Source of the DNA: a virus
Lineage: Duplodnaviria > Caudoviricetes
Virus record (IMG/VR): IMGVR_UViG_3300028048_000077
Coordinates: 64,772-128,771 of that record
Direction: 5' to 3' (one strand)
Length of the DNA: 64,000 bases
A program made the translations under genes and the position numbers. This document shows positions 9,343 through 46,402 of this stretch, one piece after another; position 1 is the first letter of the stretch, and each line of letters starts with the position of its first letter. Below the pieces are notes generated by a model. It worked only from the letters and a program-made list of their open reading frames with translations, did not search any database and was not told where the DNA came from.

Positions 9343-9368
9343 TCCCCTACCCTTAATTGGGTAGGGGA
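9343..9368. terminator. conserved-stem hairpin
   Basis: TCCCCTACCC-TTAATT-GGGTAGGGGA between convergent genes. Confidence 0.75.
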
Positions 9369-9374
9369 TATTTC

Positions 9375-10044
9375 TTATTTTATTCCATATAATTCATTAT
9401 CACTTTCTAAAGTAATTCCTGGTCCTAATTCATTCATAAATAATTTAGTATTATCTACTGTAAAATTTCCATCTATTAAACATTCATCTGCAAAGAATAT
9501 ATCTCCAACTGTATAATTGAAATTAAAATCTCCAGCATTTCCATATAACCATCCATGAATCATCATTATATTATAAATATTATTTGAATTATTATATGAA
9601 TATAAAAAATTTCCATCCAAATACCATTTATATATATTATTATTACAAGTTACAGTTATATTATATATAATATTTGTTTTTATAGAAATATTAGTATTAT
9701 AATGCAAATCACCAATATTTCCACTCCAACCCCATATATACATAATACCATTATATATTCTTATTGCAAGTGTTCCATAATCAGAAAATTGTATCCAAAG
9801 TGTATCAACATATTGACCTACTCTATCTACTAAAAATTTATAATTTAGTGTAAAATTAGTTACATTTCTGATATTAATATATTTATACGTTCCATCATTA
9901 AAATTATCTTTAGCTTTATAATATAAACCGTCTATATTTGAATTAAGAGGTTTAATATCATCATAGGGTTCGCTAAATTTTATGTAATCTCCCCCCCCCG
10001 ATTACTACTTTTCCATTATTAACGAATACTCTATCAAAAGTCAT
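9375..10044 (-). pseudogene. lectin/LamG-like protein gene out of frame at a G9 tract (candidate phase-variable gene, OFF state)
   Basis: AGGAGG RBS and ATG at 10044, 15 codons, then G9 (9991-9999) leading to TAG at 9973-9975; G8 or G11 gives an uninterrupted ORF (222 aa with G8) joining the 9375..9743 ORF. Confidence 0.75.
9991..9999 (-). repeat. poly-G(9) homopolymer tract
   Basis: C9 on the + strand in very AT-rich DNA. Confidence 0.95.
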
Positions 10045-10123
10045 AATATATTCCTCCTATTATACTAATTACTTATTTGTAGCAAAAAAAAACAAAAGAG
10101 TAAGTAGAATAGGGGTGAATAAT

Positions 10124-10816
10124 ATGATAAATAGAAGTATTATAGAATTATGTTTAAGACGTAATTCGGGGGGGGGGTACTATAATGTAGTGAATAATAC
10201 AAGTTATTCATTCGTTAATGGTTCAAGCTTACCATACCCTTCTGACTATAAAATTCGTCCAGAATGTACAATAGATTTAAGAAGTGGAGAAACTGGAATA
10301 AATTTAAATAGTTATAAAATAAATAATAAAACTATATGTTTTTGGATAAAGGATACAAGTACGTATAGTGGAAATGGTGGAGTAATATTTAGCAATTTTA
10401 ATTTAATGATTAAAAATAATACATTATATATTTTAAATGCTCCAGCATCTGGAACAGTTACATTATGCAGTCATGATTTTACTAAATGGACTTTTGTTGA
10501 AATATATGCAATAAATAATGGTAGTAGTTCTGTAAAAAATATTACATTATTTATAAATGGAACAAAAATAGGAACTTTTACTATTTATTATAATAATACA
10601 TGGGATTATTATGGTGAAAGTATAAAATATATTGGGTATTTTAGTTTAGGGAGCAATAAATTTAATTTTAATGGAATATTATCAGATGTATGTATAATTA
10701 ATGGAAGATATCATACTGATGGTTATAAAATTCCAAGTTATTATTTAAATCATTCATTATATGATAATATAAAATTTTATTTATTATATGAATCAAATGA
10801 TAATATATATGGGTAA
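10124..10816 (+). CDS. LamG/concanavalin-A-like beta-sandwich protein with in-frame G10 tract (ON state)
   Basis: TICFWIK, KWTFVEI, ITLFING and FNGILSDVCI pattern typical of LamG-like domains; G10 at 10168-10177. Confidence 0.75.
   Translation: MINRSIIELCLRRNSGGGYYNVVNNTSYSFVNGSSLPYPSDYKIRPECTIDLRSGETGINLNSYKINNKTICFWIKDTSTYSGNGGVIFSNFNLMIKNNTLYILNAPASGTVTLCSHDFTKWTFVEIYAINNGSSSVKNITLFINGTKIGTFTIYYNNTWDYYGESIKYIGYFSLGSNKFNFNGILSDVCIINGRYHTDGYKIPSYYLNHSLYDNIKFYLLYESNDNIYG
10168..10177 (+). repeat. poly-G(10) homopolymer tract
   Basis: TC-GGGGGGGGGG-TAC encoding SGGGY. Confidence 0.95.
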
Positions 10817-10827
10817 TAAAAAAGAAA

Positions 10828-10852
10828 ATCCCTACCCAATAAGGGTAGGGAT
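10828..10852. terminator. conserved-stem hairpin
   Basis: ATCCCTACCC-AATAA-GGGTAGGGAT. Confidence 0.75.
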
Positions 10853-41559: not shown

Positions 41560-41631
41560 TGTATTCACCTCTTATGCTAAAGTCAAAATCACAAAAATAT
41601 AAAGGCAGCCCCATAAGAGGCTGCCTCATAT

Positions 41632-46333: not shown

Positions 46334-46402
46334 TTATATATGGGCTAGGTTTCTAGCCCATTATTTTTTGTGATTTTGACTCTAGTATAAGAGGTGAATA
46401 CG

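Follow-up and report, generated by a model that had tools for sequence, protein, structure and literature searches.

Poly-G tracts as candidate slipped-strand ON/OFF switches on a divergent pair of LamG-fold genes in an uncultured jumbo phage

Can a phage flip its own genes on and off at random through homopolymers that slip during replication? Phase variation has long been viewed as a bacterial counter-measure to phages and, to our knowledge, few examples in phages themselves are documented beyond the Campylobacter Fletchervirus and a 2025 preprint on T-even phages. The question is raised here by two divergent LamG-fold genes in a 64,000-nucleotide stretch of viral DNA (the window), which comprises bases 64772-128771 of a single-contig, linear IMG/VR virus record of 128,771 bp (IMGVR_UViG_3300028048_000077). 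Each gene carries a long G tract close behind its start codon, and a preliminary description of the locus, made from the letters alone, proposed that the tracts act as slippage switches, one gene being ON and the other OFF. Judged from sequence, this pair behaves as a contingency locus; phase variation by slippage is a well-supported account of it, and most likely both genes are flipped on and off at random by the phage.

The reading frames of the two genes were first considered as a function of tract length. The − gene (positions 9375-10044, − strand) consists of a 15-codon leader, a G9 tract (9991-9999, C9 on the + strand) from codon 16 onward and, in the +1 frame, a body of 204 codons. Its ATG at 10044 lies behind an AGGAGG, which confirms the ribosome-binding site and start proposed earlier. 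With G9 translation stops after 23 codons, and this 23-codon open reading frame (ORF; 9973-10044, − strand) is the entire product of the OFF allele from the authentic start. The ON lengths are 8, 11 and 14; G8 gives 222 residues and G11 gives 223, with ..LESDNELYGIK as the C-terminus and the stop codon at 9375-9377. The + gene (10124-10816, + strand, 230 residues plus stop) starts at the ATG at 10124 behind GGGGTG, and its G10 tract (10168-10177) begins at codon 15/16. G10 is in frame (..NSGGGYY..) and yields the 230-residue protein ending ..YESNDNIYG; G7 and G13 are likewise in frame, while G8, G9, G11 or G12 leads to a stop after 19-22 codons. In this assembly the − gene is therefore OFF and the + gene ON. 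The frame table thus agrees with the preliminary description on the position of both homopolymers about 15 codons past the start, on the in-frame reading of G10 as SGGGY and on the effects of G8, G9 and G11 in the − gene. In both genes, then, a 5′-proximal, slippable homopolymer of at least 8 nt lies inside the ORF and its length sets the frame.

Otherwise identical sequences that differ in tract length were found for the − gene. A 223-residue protein (P0156) encoded on a 13.6-kb contig of a Logan assembly is the intact form of this gene, and shares a 90% cluster with P0003, the 122-residue truncated call of the − gene in JGI/IMG and ENA. P0156 is identical to the − gene at 204/204 positions of the post-tract body and at 18/18 positions of the leader. 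It reads ..VVIGGGGDYIKF.., in which GGGG is one Gly more than in the in-frame part of the window. Since the G run in the window is flanked by ATC and AGATTAC, the GGGG of P0156 requires G11 followed by A, and the protein is exactly the simulated G11 ON form of the − gene. The two alleles are therefore G9 and, as deduced from the protein, G11. The + protein was unchanged in JGI, Logan and ENA, where the ON state alone was seen.

More distant sequences point the same way. Two orthologues of the − gene, P0005 (220 residues) and P0008 (221 residues, on a 43-kb contig), start M(T/N)FNRVFVNN(R/G)KVVIGGGG and so keep both the leader and the GGGG; homologues lacking a tract at this position would, according to the preliminary description, have spoken against a switch. 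Orthologue identity to the − gene is 87-91% over the leader plus tract, 27-54% over the body and 63-70% over the C-terminal 63 residues. Three further relatives (P0004, P0006 and P0007) are called from internal starts, as in the OFF state. In addition, two other loci of the family occur in both fused and split form. At one of them, P0158 (232 residues, ..YAGGGGWRD..) faces P0157 plus P0013 (35 + 205 residues on one 1326-bp contig), and back-translation fits G11 in the former versus G9 in the latter. At the other, P0159 (240 residues, ..NGRFGGGGIRL..) faces P0082 (MEDSGGGGIRL..); the first four residues of P0082 are the +1 reading of the P0159 bases, and re-entry into the Gly stretch is therefore possible over a G homopolymer alone. 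The G11 form of the − gene, the GGGG of its orthologues and the two fused/split loci together support the ON/OFF slippage that had been proposed.

Could such tracts have arisen by chance? The only G/C runs of at least 8 in the window are the G9 and G10 of the LamG pair, versus 0.05 expected from shuffles. In the complete 128.8-kb record there are 19 G/C runs of length 5, none of lengths 6-8 and seven of lengths 9-11. GGG makes up 5.6% of Gly codons and, in long ORFs outside the LamG family, Gly-Gly-Gly is always written with GGT, GGA or GGC, while the family tracts are pure GGG. The poly-G tracts are of non-random origin, being over-represented relative to both composition and codon usage.

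All seven G9-G11 tracts of the record map to one gene family with nine members (A to I). Members A and B form an operon on the − strand; A, which is partial at the contig edge, has a coding G11 tract and B a coding G9 tract, and both are OFF. Members C, D and E form an operon on the + strand, in which C (G9) and E (G11) carry non-coding tracts 7 nt before the ATG and D is fixed by interrupted Gly codons (GGTGGCGGA). In a further − strand operon, F is likewise fixed by interrupted Gly codons (GGTGGGGGTGGG), and G has a coding G10 tract and is OFF. The remaining members are the pair itself, with the − gene as H (coding G9, OFF) and the + gene as I (coding G10, ON). Four of the five coding tracts of the record are thus out of frame in this assembly. 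The bodies past the OFF tracts are open for 175-229 codons, with no second lesion.

The family members are single-domain proteins of about 220-255 residues with a pairwise identity of 16-23%, and only one Gly and the C-terminal YG are near-invariant. Complete members all end in ..(E/K)x(D/N)(D/N)xxYG followed by 0-7 residues, so that the similar ends noticed earlier in the two proteins of the pair (LESDNELYGIK and YESNDNIYG) reflect a real, family-wide motif. An ending of the (D/N)xxYG type was found in no unrelated ORF of the record. The idea that it is a general sorting tag was discarded, as the motif is confined to the family; either a docking or a structural role would fit this distribution. 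When the family profile was compared with 1.84 billion representative proteins, about twenty small relatives were obtained, all with the family C-terminus, and the remaining matches were generic LamG domains within large proteins. Searches of IMG/VR, JGI metagenomes and GTDB genomes with the + protein, the body of the − protein and alignment A2 returned no related loci. Gene callers split or truncate these genes (calls of 122, 137 and 205 residues), and the family is therefore under-annotated.

Some individual members show features of their own. Both C and E (L002:2056-2085 and L002:3472-3504) have a CCCC(C)-gagtaatc-GGGG hairpin whose 3′ arm is the tract, and neither gene has a Shine-Dalgarno site other than the tract. 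The flank GTAATC-Gn is common to the C and E tracts and to that of the − gene of the pair. In member F, ..MVDENTVAY is followed by an in-frame TGA (L003:2673-2675, − strand; genome about 36672), where its orthologue P0016 has a Trp (..IGYWLFDGN..); this TGA is a nonsense codon made by a single G-to-A change, or else it is read through or recoded.

What, then, would be switched? The preliminary description had taken both proteins as beta-sandwich-like, with clear LamG motifs in the + gene. The latter statement needs a small correction, as Pfam PF13385 (Laminin_G_3) matches the + gene with an E-value of 4.6e-5 and 24.1 bits, below the curated cut-off of 27.6; it gave no match to the − gene. For the family as a whole, PF13385 matches 11 of 25 aligned members (E ≤ 0.01; best 2e-13), and the family profile matches the ConA-like PDB chains 4qvs, 7fgz and 2v73. 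For the ON form of the − protein, AF2 (AlphaFold2) run with the family alignment gave a model with a core at about residues 55-165 and, in that core, a pLDDT (predicted local distance difference test) of 70-91; a single-sequence AF2 model of the + protein reached a pLDDT of 36. Foldseek placed the − protein model with neurexin LNS, laminin G, polysaccharide lyase family 7 (PL7), carbohydrate-binding module and galectin structures, with probability 1.0 to LNS/LamG/PL7. VIA placed the same model with ConA-like jelly rolls, at Z up to 12.8 and a root mean square deviation of 3.3 over 171 residues. Phage LamG proteins were matched in BFVD, including small ones of the jumbo phages RSL2, Ea35-70 and Psa21, and in the ESM Atlas the + protein falls among viral single-domain LamG clusters (TM 0.68). 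The LamG/ConA-like two-sheet beta-jelly-roll fold is settled: the beta-sandwich part of the earlier claim stands on the family profile and on structure, and the predicted jelly roll can be superposed on solved ConA-like members.

The function of the proteins is less constrained than their fold. A comparison of eight family members with PHROGs gave one weak match, to a family of unknown function, and the proteins of the pair show no signal peptide. Longer fused forms of the − protein were sought and none was found, which is weak evidence. In alignments A2 and A3, inspected by eye for the catalytic Arg, Gln, His and Tyr motifs of PL7, no family-wide conserved His or Gln was seen. Diversifying selection on a protein that binds a ligand is suggested by the fold and by the mosaic of conserved ends and a variable middle. 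The proteins may be displayed on the virion and bind a receptor, and the C-terminus may serve in docking.

We consider it probable that the pair represents two independently slipping poly-G ON/OFF switches on LamG-fold genes. A two-gene cassette bounded by terminators holds two divergently transcribed members of the family, each laid out as a leader of about 15 codons, a G tract read as a loop of three or four Gly, a jelly-roll body and the C-terminal ..(E/K)x(D/N)(D/N)xxYG. Slipped-strand mispairing during replication of the phage DNA would add or remove tract Gs, and the body would stay in frame in no more than a third of the length classes (8/11 in the − gene and 7/10/13 in the + gene). Because frame depends on tract length at each gene, the two genes would switch independently, giving four states of the pair and many more across the family. 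The length differences would arise at a high rate within one population. At the interface of phage and host the proteins may bind glycans or cut them, perhaps acting as decoration proteins or accessory adhesins, and switching would serve as bet-hedging against variable host surfaces.

A more far-reaching scheme, possible but in our view doubtful, is combinatorial display. Nine lectin-fold cassettes, each with a portable leader plus poly-G switch, a fast-evolving body and a (D/N)xxYG tail, would deliver their products into one virion site; five switching coding tracts, two tracts at a ribosome-binding site and two locked copies would make up the set. Each burst would then be a mixture of particles differing in glycan specificity, a genetic analogue of antigenic variation. 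We know of no description of combinatorial lectin display for jumbo phages.

Several observations weigh against independent switching of the pair and against its proposed role. No OFF allele was found for the + gene, and the sole hint of one is an 84%-identical orthologue (P0002) that is called from an internal Met. The ON and OFF states are deduced from protein calls of different assemblies, and assembler error at homopolymers could produce such differences. The system is not general to the lineage. The nearest IMG/VR relative, IMGVR_UViG_3300045594_000116 (L001; 229.5 kb, 91% complete, with an RNA polymerase (RNAP) beta subunit 64% identical), lacks the LamG family as well as any G/C run of at least 8 over its whole length; its RNAP beta gene is followed by unrelated genes, with no cassette there. 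The LamG cassette and the whole poly-G system are therefore accessory and lineage-specific. In the AF2 model of the − protein, the termini, which hold the tract loop and the C-terminal motif, have a pLDDT below 50. Finally, as regards a virion location, the family members examined have neither a PHROG annotation nor a signal peptide nor a fused tail-fibre form, and the genes lie among transcription genes.

The simplest alternative is that the true tract is invariant and in frame, so that G9 is a homopolymer miscall and the − gene is simply ON. The homopolymers are indeed long, and an ON form with an otherwise identical sequence exists (P0156). However, two sources (JGI/IMG and ENA) have the OFF call and a third has the ON call, and the lengths differ by 2 nt, whereas errors of this kind are usually of 1 nt. 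Of the five coding tracts in the record four are out of frame, and two more loci of the family occur split and fused in unrelated contigs. To treat all these cases as errors implies implausibly high consensus error rates at G9-11, and we regard a pure artefact as very unlikely. Decay of paralogues, in which the tracts are mutational hot spots and the OFF copies pseudogenes with no regulated switch, would explain why four of the five tract-bearing genes are OFF, why the interrupted-tract paralogue F has an in-frame TGA against Trp in its orthologue, and why the whole family is missing from the nearest relative. It sits poorly with OFF bodies that are fully open over 175-229 codons without a second lesion, with a leader plus tract that is the best conserved part among orthologues, with tracts made of the rarest Gly codon, and with the existence of ON forms of the same genes; it is thus most improbable. 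A different kind of explanation places the frame correction in RNA or at the ribosome, by transcriptional slippage or programmed frameshifting, with tract length deciding how much short and how much full-length product is made. RNA polymerases are known to slip on homopolymers of 9 or more, and this phage has its own non-canonical RNAP. No stimulatory structure or slippery heptamer was found, though no search was aimed at either. Such correction is compatible with a DNA switch, but the DNA length differences from assembly to assembly already account for the ON and OFF forms, and we consider it unlikely that the correction occurs at the RNA level instead.

The last alternative accepts the switch and concerns the products: instead of virion lectins these might be depolymerases or small polysaccharide lyases, or might act inside the cell or on the host (for example in anti-defence or superinfection exclusion). 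The structures that match best are alginate lyases of PL7/PL18, which are single-domain proteins of equal size (Z 12.4-12.8), the neighbouring genes are transcription genes and not tail genes, and contingency loci of T2/T4 act against host defence (bioRxiv 10.1101/2025.10.21.683753). Against this, identity to the lyases is 6-11%, the near-invariant residues of the family are limited to one Gly and the C-terminal YG, the His of an MIHGW stretch is not shared by the orthologues P0005 and P0006, and most phage LamG look-alikes are structural or tail proteins. We think a role of this kind rather unlikely but possible.

How does the pair compare with known systems? The mechanism is already known from Fletchervirus and T2/T4; it is the setting that is new. 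In Campylobacter Fletchervirus, hypermutable poly-G tracts lie in receptor-binding protein genes (Sorensen et al. 2021, Cell Rep 35:109214, as represented in PMC11959909 and bioRxiv 10.1101/2025.10.21.683753). As these accounts present it, the genome of this lytic phage is AT-rich with several intragenic G tracts of about 7-11 nt, as here, and length changes shift the frame to give subpopulations differing in surface proteins. The two systems are not related in sequence, as 50,697 phage records contained no match to the + protein by tblastn or to the locus by blastn. The carrier here is a small single-domain LamG family in a jumbo phage with its own RNAP, and whereas the Fletchervirus products are, in the same accounts, receptor-binding proteins, a virion location and a receptor role here would be predictions. 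The contingency loci of T2/T4 and other coliphages (Gomez, Barrick and Waters, bioRxiv 10.1101/2025.10.21.683753) are likewise simple-sequence repeats in phage ORFs with reversible frameshifts and bet-hedging. Most of those loci, however, are short repeats (6 or more) that turn up in every class of gene, whereas the tracts of this phage are long (9-11), use a rare codon, occur in a single paralogous family and lie at a fixed point behind a conserved leader. Bacterial 5′-proximal poly-G/C contingency loci, such as Campylobacter cj1421/cj1422 and those of Haemophilus and Neisseria (PMC8713573, PMC4235727), also have a homopolymer a few codons into the ORF, are ON in one of three length classes and occur as several independent loci per genome, but those are cellular, whereas the present locus is virus-borne and has no known mismatch-repair context.

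With the PF13385/ConA-like superfamily, including the proteins of jumbo phages RSL2, Ea35-70 and Psa21, the pair shares a single jelly roll of about 220-250 residues. It differs in failing to reach the curated cut-off, and the family adds the leader-plus-tract module and the (D/N)xxYG C-terminal motif, which are not known from descriptions of PF13385. Diversification of a ligand-binding protein is also known from the diversity-generating retroelement of Bordetella phage BPP-1, in which reverse-transcriptase mutagenesis of Mtd, a C-type lectin fold, switches tropism. There too the phage itself encodes a diversification that affects part of its progeny, but the mechanism is wholly different, and no reverse transcriptase or template repeat was seen here.

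The jumbo-phage setting, the organisation of the LamG family and the presence of both states of one gene in public assemblies are what set this locus apart. With it, the principle of phage phase variation would reach an uncultured jumbo phage that has its own RNA polymerase, as well as a different fold. Because both states of the − gene are in public data, read mapping can test switching directly. Should the proteins serve in host recognition, predictions of host range and receptor from metagenomes would have to allow for the tract state.

The record is a fragment of an uncultured jumbo phage with a multisubunit RNA polymerase of the PBS1/AR9 type; its CheckV completeness is 52% and its GC content 30%, with 25-30% around the LamG pair. 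Directly upstream of the pair lies the gene for a 1533-residue RNAP beta subunit of the multisubunit jumbo-phage type (4736-9337), 30-32% identical to its counterparts in PBS1-type jumbo phages of Staphylococcus, Listeria and Bacillus. Downstream are a small zinc-ribbon gene and a sigma-70 region-4 protein, with the major head gene and a second RNAP beta piece beyond. The pair is thus placed between an RNAP beta gene and a sigma-like gene, where no tail module is recognisable.

Bidirectional terminator hairpins flank the pair on both sides. One (CCCTACCC-loop-GGGTAGGG, 9343-9368) separates the RNAP beta gene from the 3′ end of the − gene and has a 10-bp stem with T-rich tails on both strands; the other, nearly identical and of the same type, follows the + gene at 10828-10852. 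The hairpin occurs in four copies in the record (window 9345-9366 and 10830-10850; genome 4283-4303 and 21594-21613), two of which bracket the LamG pair. The hairpins were considered as marks of a mobile cassette and this was ruled out, as the same hairpin ends a topoisomerase gene. The terminators after family genes E and I are both preceded by aaaaaagaaaat, a sharing that suggests that these 3′ ends were duplicated together with the genes.

The divergent control region between the two start codons (10045-10123, 79 bp) holds both Shine-Dalgarno sites. In its middle is an A9/T9 run (10084-10092), and apart from terminator tails the record has no other A/T run of at least 9. A promoter-like motif, TATACTATA-N-ATATGA, has 10 exact copies in the window versus 0.04 expected, all upstream of genes (1742, 12343, 14406, 15569, 17327, 22176, 27545, 44581, 47262 and 55875), and presumably represents one promoter class of the phage. 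No copy was found in the 79-bp divergent region or before the major head gene, and k-mer enrichment for a second promoter motif found none. A string of AR9-like type, AACA-N6-TW, occurs 33 nt ahead of the + gene and 41 nt ahead of the major head gene, but is too short to be given weight. Two other genes (about 41560-41630 on the − strand and about 46335-46402 on the + strand), one of which is an RNAP beta piece, have a near-identical upstream string, tttttgtgattttgact(t/c)tag(c/t)ataagaggtgaatac, that comes after a hairpin and could represent another class of promoter or leader.

Finally, the exact pattern AGTAATCGGGGGGGG was found at 10 loci in IMG/VR, none of them related to the LamG family. 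Three of the 10 have a poly-G tract in a methyltransferase gene. These three (L005:4923-4940, L006:479-493 and L011:3600-3616) lie on near-identical AT-rich IMG/VR phage contigs, with the tract at about codon 14 of a gene for a DPPY-motif DNA methyltransferase (MIELFNGDCFEVIGGGAVKDN..). The tract is G10 and in frame in two of the contigs and G8 and out of frame in the third, and it is an independent phage contingency locus.

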